From the IMG/VR virus record IMGVR_UViG_2603880150_000003: DNA of 21,318 nucleotides. One strand, 5' to 3'. The stretch's first letter is position 1. Every line of letters starts with the position of its first letter. The notes beneath the pieces were generated by a model. It was not told where the DNA came from, searched no databases, and was given only the letters and a program-made list of their open reading frames with translations. The stretch comes from a virus (taxonomy: Duplodnaviria > Heunggongvirae > Uroviricota > Caudoviricetes). Below are positions 774 through 20,034 of this stretch, piece by piece. The position numbers were made by a program, and so were the translations under genes.

Positions 774-1526
774 TCAGATTCCCTGGTGAGTAAGAATTTT
801 ACTTTCTGAACTCCTCTGAGAGTATTGACTTGGAGAAACACCAAAATAACGTCTAAATACATAAGTAAAGTATGAGACACTGGCATAACCACAGACCTTA
901 GCTACTTTACTAATAGGATAACAACGAGTGCTGAGTAAATATTCAGCCATTTGCATCCTCTCATCAAGTATGATCTTACTGAATGATACCCCCTCTTCTT
1001 TCAATTTCCTCTTTAGTAAACTTTCGCTGAGATATAATCTTGATGATATATCCTTAAGACGCCATGGTGCAGATAAATCCGTATGAATAATCGTTTTAAC
1101 TTTAGCCCCTGTGCTTTTCAAACATTCAAACAGAAATACTCCAAATTGTTTTTCAGAAGAAAATGCAGAGAGACATGTAAAAGCAATAGACTCATCAAAA
1201 ATTTCTATGTATTCAGCACAGTGATTAGCCCAACTAATTAATCCTTTAATTAAACTGAAGTCAGCAAAGTTTATTTTTAAATAAGATGGATATTCCCTAC
1301 AATCAGAAATATCCCTTAAGTTATTAGCTTTCAAATAGCGACTAATAAACTCAGCGCCAAAATCCGCCACTATCACTCTTTCAGGATATGTCAGGAAAAA
1401 ATCTCTAGAGCTAGAGTCGACAAGTACAGATGAACCTCTCTCCAGAAACACACTCTCTTTTCCGAAATAAACATCAAAGGACTCCAAAATCAATATAACT
1501 GAACATGTAGTTGCCATATCATCCAC
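774..1526 (-). CDS. AraC/XylS-family transcriptional regulator (AppY/YdeO/GadX-like), low-GC gene
   Basis: 250-aa ORF; C-terminal region (..WRLKDISSRLYLSESLLKRKLKEEGVSFSKIILDERMQMAEYLL..CGYASVSYFTYVFRRYFGVSPSQY) has the double HTH signature of AraC-family regulators and resembles YdeO/AppY. Markedly AT-rich relative to the prophage genes. Confidence 0.8.
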   Translation of the reverse strand: MDDMATTCSVILILESFDVYFGKESVFLERGSSVLVDSSSRDFFLTYPERVIVADFGAEFISRYLKANNLRDISDCREYPSYLKINFADFSLIKGLISWANHCAEYIEIFDESIAFTCLSAFSSEKQFGVFLFECLKSTGAKVKTIIHTDLSAPWRLKDISSRLYLSESLLKRKLKEEGVSFSKIILDERMQMAEYLLSTRCYPISKVAKVCGYASVSYFTYVFRRYFGVSPSQYSQRSSESKILTHQGI

Positions 1527-2101
1527 CCAACTTAACTGAAACCAGGATGAAGTATATGCATATAAAGTTCACTTTGCCAAACTTCAGTATAAAAAACCAC
1601 ATAAAAAATAGGGTGTGATAAAAAACACCGTAACAATAAAGCAAAGGATTATAAATTCCGTTACAGTTACAAATGATACTCAAGAAACAATTCCTTAGGA
1701 AAAACTTATTTACAGCCAATAAGTAAGACACTTATATGATATCAAGTTTTCATAAAACATAACTAGGCTAAATAGCTGCGCCTAATACCGCTACACTTTT
1801 GCCAGCCCATATTTGCCTCCGGGTATTGACCCCTTCTCTACGCAACTTCAGTTCCCACCACCAACTTTGCGGCAGCTTTGTAGGATCAATGTCTAAAAGA
1901 ATAATGGTGACCGATAAGAAAACGACTGAATAACTGCAAATTTTCGCTCAAAACCTTCCTGTCAGATCCATAGCGAATCAAGTGCTGAATGTCACAGTAT
2001 CAAACAGAAAACAGTGACGATCTAACTCTTCAAGAATATTCTACGATTGTTCTGTTTAGGAAAAGCAAGGCGGGAAGTCGGGAGATAAGTCATTGATAAA
2101 G

Positions 2102-2163
2102 TGGCGGAGAGAGGGGGATTTGAACCCCCGGTAGAGTTGCCCCTACTCCGGTTTTCGAGACCG
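2102..2163 (-). other. Orphan 62-nt 3' fragment of tRNA-Ser(CGA) (serU-type), likely att-site remnant
   Basis: Reverse complement CGGTCTCGAAAACCGGAGTAGGGGCAACTCTACCGGGGGTTCAAATCCCCCTCTCTCCGCCA matches the 3' 62 nt of E. coli tRNA-Ser(CGA) including the CCA end; the match stops abruptly inside the anticodon stem, so no complete tRNA is present. Confidence 0.8.
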
Positions 2164-2906
2164 ATGATACAGAGTCGAAAAATCAAAGAGTTAAAAATTT
2201 TTCTTGGAATAAATGTCTTAAAATCGTACACGAAAAATCAATGAATTACATAACATTAAAGAAGAATATTCCAAGCCTTCTTGATGCTACCACCTGTTTT
2301 CAGGTGTCATTCAGACGTGATTTGCCCCAGATTGGGAAAGCACGCTTTTTTCTCAGCTATCGTCCTCTTATTTTGCCGTTACATTTCTTTTTGCACTCTA
2401 ATGATTAATTTACAATAATAATATCGGTAATTATTGAGTAATAATAAATTGATTATTGCAAATGTAATTTAATTCCATCTTCGCGTTATATTCCAATCTT
2501 TAATCTCCGCATGGAACAAGTTGCATGCGTGACTATATTAAGACAACTTATAACCACCAAAACATTTGCTTTGCAAGCAAAAACAGTGACCATTGACTCT
2601 AAGAAAATTCCGATCTATTGTTAGGGTCATCAAAGTTACTTAACAGTATTCCGAAATGAAAATACAAAGCAAGCTAATTGTCTTATTAAACATTATCATT
2701 GCATTTATATTATTTGAGCTTTTAGCTCAAAAATTTGGTTTGAGTACATTATTTTAAAGCAAGATAAACAATATCGGGCACTCTAGTTTTTATAATTAAC
2801 AATTAAACGTCCATAAAATGTTATTTACTTTTCTTCGCTATTGTCATATCTTAATATAGTGGCTTACGCCACTCTACTTTCATCACATTTTGTACGTTTA
2901 TGTACT

Positions 2907-2939
2907 CGCCATGAAGCTCTTTCATGGCGATTTTTTATT
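2907..2939 (+). terminator. Candidate intrinsic terminator (9-bp stem cgccatgaa/ttcatggcg, loop gctct, then attttttatt)
   Basis: Perfect inverted repeat followed by a T-run on the + strand, inside AT-rich non-coding DNA between the tRNA fragment and tfa. Confidence 0.3.
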
Positions 2940-3022
2940 CTTAATCCAAGAACATACTCCTTACCTATAGCAAAATCACTTTTTGAACAAAAGAATAACG
3001 TATTTAGGTAATCATTACGAAT

Positions 3023-3604
3023 TTACCCTATAGGTGCTACTGGCCATTCAATATCCGGTGCAGTTGTTGTATTAACACGGTTCAGCAACACCCGATACTT
3101 CTTCCAGGCTTCCAGCAACGAGGTTTCTTCCTCCGTTGCAATTTCCAGATCTGCAGCATCCTGAAGCGGCGCAATATGCTCACTGGCTACCTGCATCAGG
3201 CTGTTTTTTGTTTCTTCCGCCTCCCGGATCCGGAACAGTTTTTCTGCTTCTGCATCTTTCACCCAGGCTGTGCCGTTCCACTTCTGATATTCCCCTCCCG
3301 GCGACAACCAGGTAACATTTTCCGGTAACGGACCGAGTTCAGAAATAAATAACGCGTCGCCGGAAGCCACGTCATAAACCGTTTTACCCCGATGGTCTTC
3401 AACGAGATGCCACGATGCCTCATCACTGTTGAAAACAGCCACAAAGCCAGCAGGAATATCTGGTGGTGCAATATCGGTACTGTTTGCTGGCAGACCTGTA
3501 TGAGGCGGAATATATGCGTCACCTTCACCAATAAATTCATTAGTTCCGGCCAGCAGATTATAAATTTTTATGGTCCGTGGTTGTTCACTCATTCTGAATG
3601 CCAT
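3023..3604 (-). CDS. tfa: Tail fiber assembly protein Tfa (lambda Tfa-like)
   Basis: 193-aa translation [51 protein letters not shown].. is near-identical to lambda Tfa as recalled; start overlaps the stf stop by 1 nt. Confidence 0.9.
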
Positions 3605-6600
3605 TATGCAAGCCTCACAATATAGTTAAATGCGATGTTTTTGACGGTGTTTTCCGCGTTACCCGCAGCGTTAACGGTGATGGTATGTCCATGTGAGCCA
3701 ATCGCAACGGAGTGCGTATGAGCACCAATACCGACAGTATGTGCATGTGCGCCTGCGCTTGCAGCAGTGCCGGACAGCGAGTGGGTATGAGCACCATCTG
3801 ATGATGTCTTCCCTGCATTACGAGTCTGGCCACTACCGCTTGTTGTGCTCATAATCCCCGCGCTTAGATTTGAAATCGCAGTATAACCATTAGGAAAAAT
3901 GCTCGTGTTCGTGCCACCAAATGCACCGGAACTCTTGTGTTGGTGCGCACCGGCACTATTTGCTGTCCCGCTAATACTATGGGTATGTGCACCAGTGTTA
4001 TTCGTGGATTTGGTTCCGTAATCAAACGACGATGTGGTTTTCGTCCCCAAATCCGTACTGGATGCGCTGGCGCTGTGGGTGTGCGATTTAATGCCGTCCT
4101 GTTCCTGAGACAATACGGCACGACCACTGGCGGGCTTGCCCTTAATCGTCCAGCCACGCATATCAGGGATCACGCCTGACGGATAAGCAACTGCAAGTTT
4201 CGGGTATGCAGATTTGTCAAAAGTCTGCCCCTGCATCAGGGCATAGCCAGACGGAACGGTATCTGATGGCCACGGGATTGGTGCGCCGACTGGATAAAAC
4301 TCTGCAGGAGGATGAGCCGAGGTGTAAAGCTGCGCCCACGGCGACCAGTTTGCGTCGATCGTATCCCGTCGTGAACGAATAAATGCCGGAGCATGAGCAC
4401 CGCTTGTACCACTCCAGCCGATGAGTAACTCACCTTCGCCAACGGCTGTCATCCCTTTCAGGTGAATGATATTTCCATACGCTGTTGGATATCCGTTGTT
4501 ATACACCTCGTATAACTCAAGACCTGTTGCCCCCTGCGTATTGTCTGTCAGCGCGGTTACCCGACCTTTTGAAGCCAGATTAACTGATGATACTGCTGTT
4601 CCACCTGACGGTAATGCCCCAATCTCTGATGCCGTTGGCTTATTTCTGGAGTTATAGTCCCTTCGCCAGCCAGGTGAATAATCTGTTCCGTGATTAATAT
4701 AGGTAAACTGGGCGTTAGTTGTTCCACCACCAGTGGAGGTGGTCGGTGTGGTAATGCGGATCGTCATCGCTGACTTTATCCCCATTACTTCAATGACAGC
4801 TCCGGCGAGATGAATATTACCGCAGCCAGTATCAGTAATGATTTTATTATTGCCATAAGACCAGGAACCCTTGCACATCCAGTATGGATGGTTAAATGCT
4901 CCCTGAGAATCCAGCCACTCGATAAACTGTGCAGTCGTCCAGTTTCCTGTTGTTGTGCTTACTGACCCACCGAAGGCACGGCAGGCACCAATATTTTTCG
5001 TAAAGGTGTCTTTGCCAGGGATATCCGCACCGTTCTGATCTTTCTGCAGACGTTTCTCAGCATTGTCATTGGCTGCTTTTACTGCCTTTGGCGTTGCCGC
5101 CAGCGTTTCAGACGTGCTGTTGGTCGCGCTGCTTAGCTGGATTATCCCTTTCTGTGCTGTCGTTGCATCCTGTGCGGTGTATTTCCCGTTAGCCAGGTCA
5201 TACGCGGCCTTAACGGCTTTTGGTGTTGCCGCCAGTGACTCGGAAGTGCTGTTAGTCGCACTACTGAGCTGTACTATCCCCTTTTTCGTCGTGCTCGCAT
5301 CCTCAAGCGCCACGGCGGATGCAATATCCTCTGCCCGTTTTGCCGCTGTCTCAGCGCGCGTTGCTGCAGATTCCGCCGTACTTTTGCTCTGAGCTGCTGC
5401 CGTCGCACTACCAGCAGCCTCTGTCGCCTTCGTGGATGCCGTCGTGGCGCTGCCCTTCGCTGCTGACGCCTGTCTGGTCGCCTCATCTTTTGAAGCAGAC
5501 GCCGATGATGCCGATGACGCCGCCGAACTGGCGGACGATGCCGCTGCCGTTTTTGAGGATTCTGCACGGGTTTCCGAGGCTTTCGCGTTCGTTTCGGATG
5601 TCATCGCTGCGGATGCAGACCTCGCTGCTGCGCTGGCCTGTTCAGCGGCTTCGCCAGCCTTCGTTGTGGCTGTTGAAGCGGATGATGCGGCGCTTTCGGC
5701 CGATTTTCCGGCTGCGGTGGCACTGACTGAGGCCTGCCCGGCACTTGTTGACGCGGCACTGGCAGACGACGCAGCCGCTGTTTTTGAGCCTGCCGCAGCT
5801 GAGGCGCTCTGTCCCGCTGCCGTCTCAGAAGACCTGGCGTTCGTCTCGGACGTTTTTGCCGCCTTCGCGGAATTTCCTGCCGCCGTTGCCGAGGAAGCGG
5901 CACTACTGGCGCTTGATGATGCGTTCGTTTCTGATGATTTTGCCGCTTCTTTTGAGGCCGCCGCATCCCGGGCCGAGGTCGCAGCTTCTGATGCCTTCGT
6001 GGTCGCGGTGGATGCAGATGTGGCTGCTGATTGTTGTGACGCTGAAGCATTCGTTTCTGACGTTTTCGCCGCACCGGCACTGGTGGCCGCCGCGCTTTTT
6101 GAGGACTCTGCAGCGGCAGCACTTTTTGATGCTTCAGTGGCCTTTGTTGATGCCGTTCCTGCGCTGGAAGACGCTGACTGAGCCGACGACGCGGCCTGTC
6201 CGGCTGACGTGCTGGCTGCGCGTGCTGAGTCCGCAGCATCAGCCGCATGGGTTGCCGCCTCACGGGCTGATGTGCTGGCATCACTGGCTGACTTCTTCGC
6301 GGCTGCCGTGTTCTGTGCCACCGCGGACGCGTTACGCGCCACCTCTTCCACCATCAGTTCAAAACGGCGCAGTGCCTCAGGACGGGCATCATCCTCCGTC
6401 ATGGCACCGAGAAAATCATTCAGCGTACCGGGTTGAGAATCTTCATACACGGTGATGGTCCCGGCATGTGACGGCGGGAATCCTTCCACCAACAGAATAA
6501 CGCTGTACTGACCGTACTCCACATCCATGCTGTAACGCCCGGCTTCATCCGGATTCTCTGAGCCCACCGTGTTCACCACCACCGTGGTGCTGTTACGTCT

Positions 6601-14885: not shown

Positions 14886-15229
14886 GCCGCCCTCCTGACG
14901 CCCTGCCCGATCGCCATCAATGCCGCTTTGGATACGGTAGTAAACATCCGTCGAGGACTGATGAACAGTCGCCAAATCAGCAGCATGGAGCCTTTGCTGT
15001 TTTCCTTCTTCTCCAACCCTGTCGATGGTTCGATAAAATTAATCCGTCCATCAGTGATAATGCGAACTTCGTCGACACTCTCCAGAGCCTTGCTGAACCA
15101 TCCGACTGACATATCCTCTGGCACAAGCATAACTACCGTCTGTCGCTGTTGTATGCACTGCTCAGCGGCTTTTTCCACCCACGGCCTGATATTGCTGTAC
15201 GGTGGGTTATTCCAGATTGCACCGTGGCT
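14882..15229 (-). pseudogene. Phage Dam-type N6-adenine DNA methyltransferase, 3' fragment (contains the NPPY motif)
   Basis: Minus-strand translation from 15229: [71 protein letters not shown]..; catalytic NPPY motif present, no N-terminal domain; an in-frame stop lies immediately upstream (15230-15232). Confidence 0.7.
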
Positions 15230-15230
15230 T

Positions 15231-15542
15231 TACGAGTATTGCCGGAAGCGAGGCCTGTATCCGGATGCGGAGTCTTATCCGTGGAAATCAAACGCGCACT
15301 ACTGGCTGGTTACCAACCTGTATCAGAACATGCGGGCCAATGCGCTTACTGATGCGGAATTACGGCGCAAGGCTGCCGATGAACTGACCTGTATGACAGC
15401 GCGAATTAACCGTGGTGAGACGATACCTGAACCAGTAAAACAACTTCCTGTTATGGGCGGTAGACCTCTAAATCGTGCACAGGCTCTGGCGAAGATCGCA
15501 GAAATTAAAGCTAAGTTCGGACTGAAAGGAGCAAGTGTATGA
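15231..15542 (+). pseudogene. P: Replication protein P, C-terminal ~104 codons only
   Basis: YEYCRKRGLYPDAESYPWKSNAHYWLVTNLYQNMRANALTDAELRRKAADELTCMTARINRGETIPEPVKQLPVMGGRPLNRAQALAKIAEIKAKFGLKGASV matches the lambda P C-terminus; the preceding 160 codons of the listed ORF are antisense to ninE/dam and unrelated to P. Confidence 0.8.
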
Positions 15543-15829
15543 CGGGCAAAGAGGCAATTATTCATTACCTGGGGACGCATAATAGCTTCTGTGCGCCGGA
15601 CGTTGCCGCGCTAACAGGCGCAACAGTAACCAGCATAAATCAGGCCGCGGCTAAAATGGCACGGGCAGGTCTTCTGGTTATCGAAGGTAAGGTCTGGCGA
15701 ACGGTGTATTACCGGTTTGCTACCAGGGAAGAACGGGAAGGAAAGATGAGCACGAACCTGATTTTTAAGGAGTGTCGCCAGAGTGCCGCGATGAAACGGG
15801 TATTGGCGGTATATAGAGTTAAAAGATGA
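15539..15829 (+). CDS. ren: Ren
   Basis: MTGKEAIIHYLGTHNSFCAPDVAALTGATVTSINQAAAKMARAGLLVIEGKVWRTVYYRFATREEREGKMSTNLIFKECRQSAAMKRVLAVYRVKR matches lambda Ren; ATGA overlap with the P stop. Confidence 0.85.
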   Translation: MTGKEAIIHYLGTHNSFCAPDVAALTGATVTSINQAAAKMARAGLLVIEGKVWRTVYYRFATREEREGKMSTNLIFKECRQSAAMKRVLAVYRVKR

Positions 15830-15902
15830 CCATCTATATTACTGAGCTAATAACAGGCCTGCTGGTAATCGCAGGCCTTTTTATTTGGGGGAGAGGGAAG
15901 TC

Positions 15903-16343
15903 ATGAAAAAACTAACCTTTGAAATTCGATCTCCAGCACATCAGCAAAACGCTATTCACGCAGTACAGCAAATCCTTCCAGACCCAACCAAACCAATCGT
16001 AGTAACCATTCAGGAACGCAACCGTAGCTTAGACCAAAACAGGAAGCTATGGGCCTGCTTAGGTGACGTCTCTCGTCAGGTTGAATGGCATGGTCGCTGG
16101 CTGGATGCAGAAAGCTGGAAGTGTGTGTTTACCGCAGCATTAAAGCAGCAGGATGTTGTTCCTAACCTTGCCGGGAATGGCTTTGTGGTAATAGGCCAGT
16201 CAACCAGCAGGATGCGTGTAGGCGAATTTGCGGAGCTATTAGAGCTTATACAGGCATTCGGTACAGAGCGTGGCGTTAAGTGGTCAGACGAAGCGAGACT
16301 GGCTCTGGAGTGGAAAGCGAGATGGGGAGATCGGGCTGCATGA
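15903..16343 (+). CDS. ninB: NinB (Orf-family recombination mediator)
   Basis: MKKLTFEIRSPAHQQNAIHAVQQILPDPTKPIVVTIQERNRSLDQNRKLWACLGDVSRQVEWHGRWLDAESWKCVFTAALKQQD.. matches lambda NinB; SD gagggaag upstream. Confidence 0.9.
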   Translation: MKKLTFEIRSPAHQQNAIHAVQQILPDPTKPIVVTIQERNRSLDQNRKLWACLGDVSRQVEWHGRWLDAESWKCVFTAALKQQDVVPNLAGNGFVVIGQSTSRMRVGEFAELLELIQAFGTERGVKWSDEARLALEWKARWGDRAA

Positions 16344-16708
16344 CTATCAAATCAAATACGCCAGCACACGACAAGGACTGCTGGCAAACGCCGCTTTGGC
16401 TTTTTGATGCACTGGATATTGAGTTTGGATTCTGGCTGGATTCGGCAGCGAGCGACAAAAATGCTCTGTGTGCTCACTGGCTAACTGAGGCCGACGACGC
16501 GCTCAATTCTGAGTGGGTACACAAAGCATCTCCTGTTGAGTTAAGAACGAGTATTGAGATGGCACATAGCCTTGCTCAAATTGGAGTCAGGTTTGTGCCA
16601 ATACCAGTAGAAACAGACGAAGAATTTCATACGTTAGCCGCATCCCTTTCACAAAAGCTGGAAATGATGGTGGCGAAAGCAGAAGCAGATGAGAGAGACC
16701 AGGTATGA
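16340..16708 (+). pseudogene. Dam-type methyltransferase 5' fragment (62 codons, DCWQTP motif) fused in frame to an early-left small ORF (possibly lambda orf63-like)
   Basis: MTIKSNTPAHDKDCWQTPLWLFDALDIEFGFWLDSAASDKNALCAHWLTEADDALNSEWVH is the N-terminal half expected upstream of the NPPY fragment at 14882-15229; after His62 the sequence (KASPVELRTSIEMAHSLAQIG..) is unrelated to Dam. ATGA overlap with the ninB stop. Confidence 0.65.
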
Positions 16709-18633: not shown

Positions 18634-18852
18634 ATGTACTTGACACTTCAGGAGTGGAACGCACGCCAGCGACGCCCAAGAAGCCTTGAAACAGTTCGTC
18701 GATGGGTACGCGAGTGCAGGATATTCCCTCCTCCGGTTAAGGATGGAAGAGAGTATCTGTTCCACGAATCAGCGGTAAAGGTTGACTTAAATCGACCAGT
18801 AACAGGTAGCCTTTTGAAGAGGATCAGAAATGGGAAGAAGGCGAAGTCATGA
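18634..18852 (+). CDS. xis: Excisionase Xis
   Basis: MYLTLQEWNARQRRPRSLETVRRWVRECRIFPPPVKDGREYLFHESAVKVDLNRPVTGSLLKRIRNGKKAKS matches lambda Xis (72 aa); overlaps the int start. Confidence 0.9.
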   Translation: MYLTLQEWNARQRRPRSLETVRRWVRECRIFPPPVKDGREYLFHESAVKVDLNRPVTGSLLKRIRNGKKAKS

Positions 18853-19900
18853 GCGCCGGGATTTACCCCCTAACCTTTATATAAGAAACAATGGATATTA
18901 CTGCTACAGGGACCCAAGGACGGGTAAAGAGTTTGGATTAGGCCGAGACAGGCGAATCGCAATCACTGAAGCTATACAGGCCAACATTGAGTTATTTTCA
19001 GGACACAAACACAAGCCTCTGACAGCGAGAATCAACAGTGATAATTCCGTTACGTTACATTCATGGCTTGATCGCTACGAAAAAATCCTGGCCAGCAGAG
19101 GAATCAAGCAGAAGACACTCATAAATTACATGAGCAAAATTAAAGCAATAAGGAGGGGTCTGCCTGATGCTCCACTTGAAGACATCACCACAAAAGAAAT
19201 TGCGGCAATGCTCAATGGATACATAGACGAGGGCAAGGCGGCATCAGCCAAGTTAATCAGATCAACACTGAGCGATGCATTCCGAGAGGCTATAGCTGAA
19301 GGCCATATAACAACAAACCCGGTCGCAGCCACTCGCGCTGCAAAATCAGAGGTAAGGAGATCAAGACTTACGGCTGACGAATACCTGAAAATTTATCAAG
19401 CAGCAGAATCATCACCATGTTGGCTTAGACTTGCAATGGAACTGGCTGTTGTTACCGGGCAGCGAGTTGGTGATTTATGCGAAATGAAGTGGTCTGATAT
19501 CGTAGATGGATATCTTTATGTCGAGCAAAGCAAAACAGGCGTAAAAATTGCCATCCCAACAACATTGCATGTTGATGCTCTCGGGATATCAATGAAGGAA
19601 ACACTTGATAAATGCAAAAAGATTCTTGGCGGAGAAACCATAATTGCATCTACTCGTCGTGAACCGCTTTCATCCGGCACAGTATCAAGGTATTTTATGC
19701 GCGCACGAAAAGCATCAGGTCTCTCCTTCGAAGGGGATCCGCCAACCTTTCACGAGTTGCGCAGTTTGTCTGCAAGACTCTATGAGAAGCAGATAAGCGA
19801 TAAATTTGCTCAACATCTTCTCGGGCATAAGTCGGACACCATGGCATCACAGTATCGTGATGACAGAGGCAGGGAGTGGGACAAAATTGAAATCAAATAA
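18830..19900 (+). CDS. int: Integrase Int (lambda-type tyrosine recombinase)
   Basis: 356 aa MGRRRSHERRDLPPNLYIRNNGYYCYRDPRTGKEFGLGRDRRIAITEAIQANIELFSGHKHKPLTARINSDNSVTLHSWLDRYEKILASRGIKQKTL.. near-identical to lambda Int; 3' end points at the att core. Confidence 0.95.
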   Translation: MGRRRSHERRDLPPNLYIRNNGYYCYRDPRTGKEFGLGRDRRIAITEAIQANIELFSGHKHKPLTARINSDNSVTLHSWLDRYEKILASRGIKQKTLINYMSKIKAIRRGLPDAPLEDITTKEIAAMLNGYIDEGKAASAKLIRSTLSDAFREAIAEGHITTNPVAATRAAKSEVRRSRLTADEYLKIYQAAESSPCWLRLAMELAVVTGQRVGDLCEMKWSDIVDGYLYVEQSKTGVKIAIPTTLHVDALGISMKETLDKCKKILGGETIIASTRREPLSSGTVSRYFMRARKASGLSFEGDPPTFHELRSLSARLYEKQISDKFAQHLLGHKSDTMASQYRDDRGREWDKIEIK

Positions 19901-19954: not shown

Positions 19955-19987
19955 GCTTTTTTATAATGCCAACTTAGTATAAAAAAG
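19955..19987. other. Prophage-host att junction (int-proximal); 15-bp lambda core GCTTTTTTATACTAA on the - strand at 19973-19987
   Basis: ..gttgcaacaaattgataagcaatgcttttttataatgccaacttagtataaaaaagc matches the lambda P arm and core as recalled; the following aggc.. matches the bacterial arm (CTGCTTTTTTATACTAA.. in reverse complement). Confidence 0.8.
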
Positions 19988-20034
19988 CAGGCTTCAACGG
20001 ATTCATTTTTCTATTTCATAGCCCGGAGCAACCT

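Follow-up and report, generated by a model that had tools for sequence, protein, structure and literature searches.

A probable serU attR relic with 278 bp of host DNA in the b region of a λ-site prophage

The presence of a tRNA 3′ repeat at attR is a textbook feature of integration into tRNA genes. In the bio-type transducing phages of λ, aberrant excision takes host DNA from the attR side and keeps a hybrid P-O-B′ site. The tyrosine integrases that target tRNA genes reportedly include a class with an anticodon-loop sublocation, which Williams is said to have distinguished in 2002 in Nucleic Acids Res. Integration at serU has been documented for lambdoid and Stx prophages (PMC8065619, PMC7067040), and lambdoid prophages occupy this gene in STEC, ETEC and commensal E. 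coli. The attR junctions of such prophages (SerU-LTIIb, KU052038; O145:H28, O121:H19 and SE11 prophages) contain the same 62-nt tRNA repeat, the same 3′ flank and the same P-arm family as the DNA described here, and SerU-LTIIb is 95% identical to positions 1824-2279 of it. In the present study, the window is the whole analysed stretch of 21,318 nucleotides of a tailed phage record (IMGVR_UViG_2603880150_000003), where a copy of this repeat is found away from serU. It is likely, with a probability of about 0.88, that the copy belongs to the attR of a serU phage, that this attR and 278 bp of adjoining host DNA were captured in the b region of phages with a λ-type integrase, and that the copy is now an inert fossil.

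The fragment occupies positions 2102-2163 and reads on the minus strand CGGTCTCGAAAACCGGAGTAGGGGCAACTCTACCGGGGGTTCAAATCCCCCTCTCTCCGCCA. Pairwise comparison showed that it is identical at 62 of 62 positions to nucleotides 29-90 of K-12 serU (tRNA-Ser CGA), and it includes the anticodon stem-loop, the variable arm, the T arm, the 3′ strand of the acceptor and the CCA. The match breaks off at the second base on the 5′ side of the anticodon stem (...GTATCAT in the window versus ...AACGGAC in serU), and the 28 nucleotides at the 5′ end of serU, comprising the 5′ strand of the acceptor and the D arm, are missing. The first-pass annotation, which had described an exact 3′ copy of a serU-type tRNA-Ser including CCA that stops abruptly in the anticodon stem, was therefore accurate on both points. 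It had also named a complete tRNA or a chance match of fewer than about 40 identities as results that would speak against it. ARAGORN called zero tRNA genes in the whole window, and Rfam found no tRNA at the gathering score or at E ≤ 1, positions 1800-2500 included; the only related Rfam items, all sub-threshold, were an antisense plastid trnS-like motif and a T-arm fragment of tmRNA. A functional tRNA-Ser gene was rejected, there being no complete cloverleaf and no 5′ 28 nucleotides. Chance is excluded, since the match of 62 nucleotides continues for 278 bp into the native 3′ flank of serU. Two small ORFs that overlap the fragment and the P arm (2022-2231 and 2241-2408) gave no family matches and are treated as spurious.

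The flank at 1824-2101 (minus strand) is chromosomal DNA normally located 3′ of serU (the B′ flank), about 97% identical to serU loci; it makes up the half of the yodB-serU intergenic region that lies nearer to serU. In a megablast search the combined 340 bp of flank and fragment (1824-2163) matched the serU locus at about 97% in 5,423 of 5,426 complete E. coli genomes, the identity to K-12 being 96.8%. E. coli strain AH21, which carries the same prophage, has an intact and unoccupied serU locus. The flank of this intact gene differs from that of the window at 10 of 278 sites, versus 0-3 differences in phage copies of the flank, which are 99-100% identical to the relic. Being closer to the phage copies than to AH21's own flank, the sequence is a xenologous copy that arrived with a phage and is not the product of a local rearrangement.

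The window is 99.97-100% identical to AH21, save for IS insertions present in AH21 alone. The annotated context in AH21 (bioA, ybhB, a defective lambdoid prophage, ybhC) places the prophage at the classical λ attachment site between ybhB and ybhC, as follows from the two flanking genes, from the λ cores at both ends and from the λ-type integrase. The int-proximal junction (attL) contains the λ att core GCTTTTTTATACTAA at 19974-19988 (minus strand), and its partner, with one mismatch, lies about 238 bp to the left of the window start in AH21. The integrase of the resident prophage (18830-19900, plus strand; Pfam Phage_integrase and λ Arm-DNA-bind_1) adjoins ybhC. It is the only integrase in the window, is located 16.7 kb from the serU fragment and is not the cognate enzyme of the relic. 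Inward from ybhB follow IS3-family fragments, an AraC-family gene, the serU fragment, AT-rich DNA, tfa and stf, and the fragment is thus situated in the b region (tfa to attP) of a λ-site prophage. This agrees with the earlier description of a fragment lying between tfa and a regulator gene, next to neither a tRNA gene nor an integrase.

The structural genes end, on the side of the b region, with the tail fibre assembly gene tfa (3023-3604, minus strand), identified by the annotation of AH21, strain 488, mEp332 and ev099. Between the AraC gene and the λ-type P arm are the transposase fragments of the IS3 family (70-732), where the RefSeq annotation of the identical AH21 sequence shows a partial transposase and a partial integrase-core-domain protein. 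The AraC-family regulator (774-1526, minus strand; Pfam HTH_AraC and HTH_18) is b-region cargo of the YdeO/GadX-like type, its best NCBIfam matches being the acid-resistance regulators YdeO and GadX, both below the cutoff. Positions 296-2164 of the window are 99.0% identical to strain 2009C-3554, an O157-related strain in which the sequence belongs to a thrW prophage cluster. To judge by its location, compared with that given in a review (PMC10877973), the regulator is probably of the PatE type (z0321, OI-8).

The prophage in the window is clearly defective. Relative to phage mEp332, about 15.7 kb have been lost near position ~8380, from the large terminase subunit through most of J, the deletion fusing a J fragment to nu1/nohD, and a 1.3-kb segment of the replication region (15225-16516) is inverted. 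Save for this deletion and inversion the alignment with the phages is full-length, and the window is therefore a decayed relative of them. Two further elements were observed near the fragment. A 33-aa hydrophobic ORF at 2656-2757 (plus strand), MKIQSKLIVLLNIIIAFILFELLAQKFGLSTLF, is unannotated and resembles YncL, a small stress-response membrane protein (NCBIfam E = 1.3e-5, 25 bits, below the cutoff of 35); with a promoter-like site at 2593-2621 and a strong terminator-like hairpin at 2906-2930 (plus strand) around it, it may be a small-protein moron of the b region. The sole gathering-level Rfam match of the window, IS009 at 3063-3261 (minus strand, 227 bits), lies wholly within tfa on the same strand, and this "sRNA" family may be merely conserved tfa sequence.

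The anatomy of the fragment can be read by comparison with strain 488, which carries a lambdoid prophage of about 40 kb at serU, bounded by serU and the 62-nt repeat. The order there is mtfA, intact serU, integrase, early genes, late genes, J, lom, stf and tfa, followed by AT-rich DNA that includes the arm, the 62-nt repeat, the 278 bp and yodB. Positions 1824-3800 of the window are colinear with this prophage at 97.7%, and the colinearity continues through stf, lom and J. Host flank on one side and serU-prophage DNA on the other make this a hybrid attR (P arm, core, B′ flank) and not an attP, and 2102-2163 represents the core together with the host-derived part of the tRNA gene.

The two ends of the strain 488 prophage differ in their tRNA alleles. 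At attL, two compensatory changes in the variable arm (A48G/T59C) set the rebuilt serU apart from the canonical gene; ARAGORN nevertheless recognises it as tRNA-Ser(CGA). Both the window copy and the attR copy of strain 488 have the host alleles A48/T59. This split between attL (G48/C59) on one side and attR and the window on the other shows that strand exchange took place 5′ of nucleotide 48, in the anticodon stem-loop, and that the window copy is the host side; most of the 62 nucleotides in the window are host-derived. A separate consequence of the attL alleles, seen at L006 17136-17225, is that lysogens of strain 488 express a slightly different tRNA-Ser(CGA). The true P′ arm, found at the strain 488 attL, reaches the integrase 27 bp past the CCA and shares with the window beyond the CCA only about 16 partly matching bases.

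The P arm of the serU-specific lambdoid attP was placed at 2164-2358. The combination of flank, core and arm is present in 695 of 5,426 genomes; the arm is conserved up to window position 2358, at which the lineages diverge, and its extent was set by this limit. The repeated motif CTTGGAATA(TT), present at 2203-2211 (plus strand) and 2265-2275 (minus strand) as CTTGGAATATT, marks candidate arm-type integrase sites; the two copies in the P arm have counterparts in three tandem copies in the strain 488 P′ arm beside the integrase. The P arm also contains the direct repeat CGAAAAATCAA at 2176-2186 and 2231-2241. The P and P′ arms have 22 8-mers in common, versus 1.9 expected from shuffled sequences (maximum 8). 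Such a layout is what would be expected for arm-type sites. The AT-rich DNA between the P arm and tfa (2359-3022) was inherited from the serU-integrating phage, as the colinearity with strain 488 indicates.

The locus thus has an exact tRNA 3′ copy from the crossover region, the native 3′ flank on one side of it and colinear phage DNA 5′ of it. It does not lie at a tRNA locus, and neither a partner attL nor a cognate integrase is present on the element. Given the ybhB/ybhC surroundings, the λ cores with their λ-type integrase and the lack of a tRNA gene in the window, the attR is a displaced and orphan one. The first-pass view of a direct-repeat scar left by a tRNA-targeting integrase is upheld by the serU copy with its native flank and its prophage side. 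The proposal of a relocated end of a serU-targeting island stands as to the relocated end, which the flank and the strain 488 colinearity support, and fails as to a generic island, the element being a lambdoid phage. Its other proposal, an attP captured from another phage, did not survive, for host DNA stands in the place of the P′ arm. That annotation had been unable to take in the 278-bp host flank, the presence of the block in sequenced phage genomes or the λ attachment site at which the prophage lies.

The block is carried by phages. Positions 1500-3000 were found in three phage genome records, mEp332, PhiR70_1 and ev099, at 99.0-99.5% identity, between tfa and a λ-type attP-int-xis module. 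One of them, mEp332, is a lambdoid phage that forms plaques and is kept in lysogenic K-12 (PMC3442831). Phage genomes thus carry host DNA contiguous with a hybrid att site. Each phage record has one annotated integrase only, of the λ type in ev099 and mEp332, which is consistent with the loss of the serU-type integrase; as ev099 has no second annotated integrase, the original integrase module is gone from it. The whole block is also present in the sampled att-λ prophages, and ybhB adjoins the window-type block in AH21, APEC O78 and 2013C-4974.

At its outer end, the host flank meets a 55-bp remnant of the end of an IS630-family element (1769-1823), 91% identical to the end of an annotated element (L010 2501-2555) that has a matching inverted repeat at its other end. 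The remnant points its terminus, TAAATAGCTGCGCC at 1769, towards the AraC gene, and its truncated interior is joined to the serU flank at 1823/1824, the junction designated here J1. As the truncated interior of the IS, and not its terminus, meets the flank, J1 is an illegitimate join and not a transposition junction. The reading of J1 as an insertion of IS630 into its TA target site was rejected, the terminus being on the AraC side.

The exact J1 sequence was found in 30 IMG/VR contigs, always accompanied by the AraC gene. A search with the exact J1 22-mer in one genome per bacterial species gave no match, and at that stringency there was no evidence of the block outside E. coli-type genomes. 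In the J1-bearing contigs the block (AraC gene, IS remnant, flank and core) is followed by one of two unrelated P arms of the serU type. The window-type arm follows in 8 of the 30 contigs, and 97 complete genomes hold at least 80% of window positions 1500-3000. The second arm, beside a LEM-3-like GIY-YIG gene, follows in 22 of the 30, and 817 complete genomes hold the core with this arm; the tRNA identity extends over 66 nucleotides in most contig copies of the second type versus 62 in the window type. O157:H7 has the second-arm type. In strains 2009C-3554 and 120899 the second-arm block is part of the b region of a lambdoid prophage; the prophage's own integrase is located at thrW, and a P4-like satellite comes next.

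All 25 J1-bearing flank copies compared have the same junction and a T at window position 1879, with 0-5 differences from the window. The four chromosomal serU flanks compared have a C at this position and 5-12 differences, and the nearest chromosomal allele to the relic is that of strain ST2747, with 5 mismatches in 278. One J1 join linked to two P arms, together with the shared flank alleles, tentatively suggests that the capture happened once and that the block then spread and later exchanged its P-arm side, with only four chromosomal flanks compared. Strain ST2747 (L049 1110-1779) is peculiar in that yodB is lacking between zinT and serU, the interval being about 1 kb shorter than in K-12. 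That this deletion shares its breakpoint with J1 was considered and rejected on comparison, the breakpoints being different.

Some related arrangements were noticed in other strains. Directly beyond the AraC/IS3 end of the block in 2009C-3554 (L005 27717-28898) and 120899 (L045 18390-19559) lies the P4-like satellite, whose integrase is followed by a hotspot of defence genes, occupied in one of the strains by an ABC-three-component system and in the other by a SIR2 gene. The arrangement fits tandem occupancy of thrW. In strain IAI39, an ssrA-associated prophage (L008 ~6001-6030) has the arm of the LEM-3 side with a 19-nt copy of the serU anticodon stem-loop, GGACCGGTCTCGAAAACCG, without any further tRNA identity and with a restriction-modification system alongside; it looks like another displaced and truncated att remnant of the serU type.

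The sequence of events can be proposed as follows. The hybrid attR would have arisen when a serU-specific lambdoid phage entered serU, the strands being exchanged in the anticodon stem-loop. The segment composed of tfa, the AT-rich DNA, the P arm, the 62 nucleotides and 278 bp of chromosome may then have been joined en bloc to the b region of another phage by illegitimate recombination into a truncated IS630-family element. By the favoured route, a phage with IS630, the AraC gene and a λ- or thrW-type att-int module would have taken the block from a resident serU prophage, two exchanges being required, a homologous one in the tail-fibre genes and an illegitimate one 278 bp past serU. By the other route, which resembles specialised transduction, the serU phage would have excised aberrantly in the manner of λ bio, and its integration module would have been replaced later. 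Simple λ-bio excision predicts early DNA of the serU phage at the flank, and what is seen instead is the IS remnant, the AraC gene and a λ-type att-int module, so that at least one further exchange is needed. As a single aberrant excision cannot account for the λ-type attP-int beside J1, the route by a tail-fibre crossover is favoured. No intermediate predating the capture came to light. Phages like mEp332, PhiR70_1 and ev099 would since have kept the block between tfa and attP, a region they can do without, and so would the prophages at ybhB/ybhC that descend from them, the window being a decayed one. No function is apparent for the fragment or for the flank; as no tRNA is made and no cognate integrase is nearby, the fragment is most likely inert.

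Several other explanations were weighed against this capture of an attR. The possibility that the locus is the captured attP of another serU-specific phage, with phage DNA on both sides, finds some support in 2164-2358, which is genuine attP-arm DNA with repeated motifs resembling arm-type sites. It is rendered extremely improbable by the other side, which consists of 278 bp of chromosome found at serU in about 5,400 genomes whether or not a prophage is present there, by the strain 488 P′ arm, which enters the integrase 27 bp after the CCA and resembles the window over about 16 bases, and by the alleles of the window, which are those of the host (A48/T59) and not of the phage (G48/C59). A rearrangement of the chromosome in a single strain (inversion, translocation or gene conversion between the serU and att-λ prophages), which would leave the block not phage-borne, is conceivable in view of the homology available in the tail-fibre genes and of the frequent recombination among lambdoid prophages, replacements having been reported for serU prophages (PMC7067040). 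This must be judged very unlikely, as the same block with J1 occurs in the records of mEp332, PhiR70_1 and ev099, the AH21 serU locus is intact and unoccupied with a flank 10 sites away from a relic to which the phage copies are 99-100% identical, and ybhB directly past the block leaves no room for a large inversion. Least credible of all is that the phage expresses the fragment, as a truncated tRNA gene or as a functional RNA derived from a tRNA. The anticodon stem-loop, variable arm, T arm and CCA are retained intact, but the acceptor 5′ strand and D arm (5′ 28 nucleotides) are absent, ARAGORN and Rfam reported nothing, and the promoter scan of the minus strand upstream, near 2164-2260, revealed no promoter-like site.

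More consideration is due to the possibility that the relic is still active, either as a portable secondary att site of the serU type or as a 340-bp homology patch in att-λ and thrW phages. The core, the P arm and its repeated motifs appear intact, and a cognate Int/Xis might still act on the site. In addition, the presence of one B′ block (AraC gene, IS630 remnant, 278 bp and core) on two unrelated serU-type P arms implies an exchange at or near the core after J1 had formed. RecA-dependent exchange in the shared 340 bp combined with a crossover in the tail-fibre genes explains this swap of arms equally well, however, and no hybrid P-core-P′ site was seen among the samples examined. A tandem insertion of the second-arm phage into the relic was looked for in strain 120899 and was not found; the far end of that phage is a thrW-type integrase at thrW. 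Thus, continued activity is judged unlikely, and the interpretation of the locus as a captured, inert attR is retained.

Understood in this way, the relic is a clean natural record of a change of integration site in lambdoid phages: a lineage now using the λ or thrW site keeps the attR from its serU past. It also indicates that small pieces of host DNA beside att sites can become fixed in phage genomes. In practice, orphan tRNA fragments of this kind can mislead programs that call the boundaries of islands and prophages from tRNA repeats, and the 340 bp of identity with serU are a potential substrate for rearrangements in strains carrying such prophages. If the relic were active, serU-specific phages could recombine with, or land in, prophages at att-λ or thrW, which would explain the two P arms on one flank block and would offer a route for the switching of integrase modules and for large rearrangements between serU and att-λ. 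Beyond the evolutionary record and the practical caveats, the feature is an ordinary scar.

Compared with the serU attR junctions described at the beginning, the window copy differs in being away from serU, without a partner attL or a cognate integrase, and in having its host flank cut after 278 bp by the IS630 remnant inside the b region of another phage at att-λ. Like the members of the anticodon-loop class, it has tRNA identity that runs from the 5′ arm of the anticodon stem to the 3′ end and an exchange located, on the evidence of the alleles, 5′ of nucleotide 48; the original integration was no different from that class, whereas the window copy is a displaced product. tRNA-Ser-like segments ending at the same boundary were found in diverse phages of Klebsiella and Citrobacter. 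The likeness to λ bio lies in the host DNA placed immediately beside a hybrid att on the tail-fibre/b-region side of the phage genome. Unlike λ bio, the block has 278 bp only and no host gene, and its novel joint leads not to early DNA but to an IS remnant, an AraC gene and a complete λ-type attP-int-xis module. Unlike laboratory transducing variants, the arrangement is natural and evolutionarily fixed, being present in 97 complete genomes with the window arm and 817 with the second arm. A further counterpart is the O157:H7-type thrW block, which shares J1, the AraC gene, the 278-bp flank and the serU core and likewise belongs to the b region of a lambdoid prophage with an integrase that targets another site; it differs in its P arm, which is that of the LEM-3-like GIY-YIG side, and in the location of the prophage at thrW and not at att-λ. 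A limited literature search returned no account of a serU attR with 278 bp of host DNA displaced into the b region of other phages. Relative to the known systems, the new element is a displaced attR with 278 bp of host DNA in phages that use other sites, persisting both in phage records and in hundreds of genomes.
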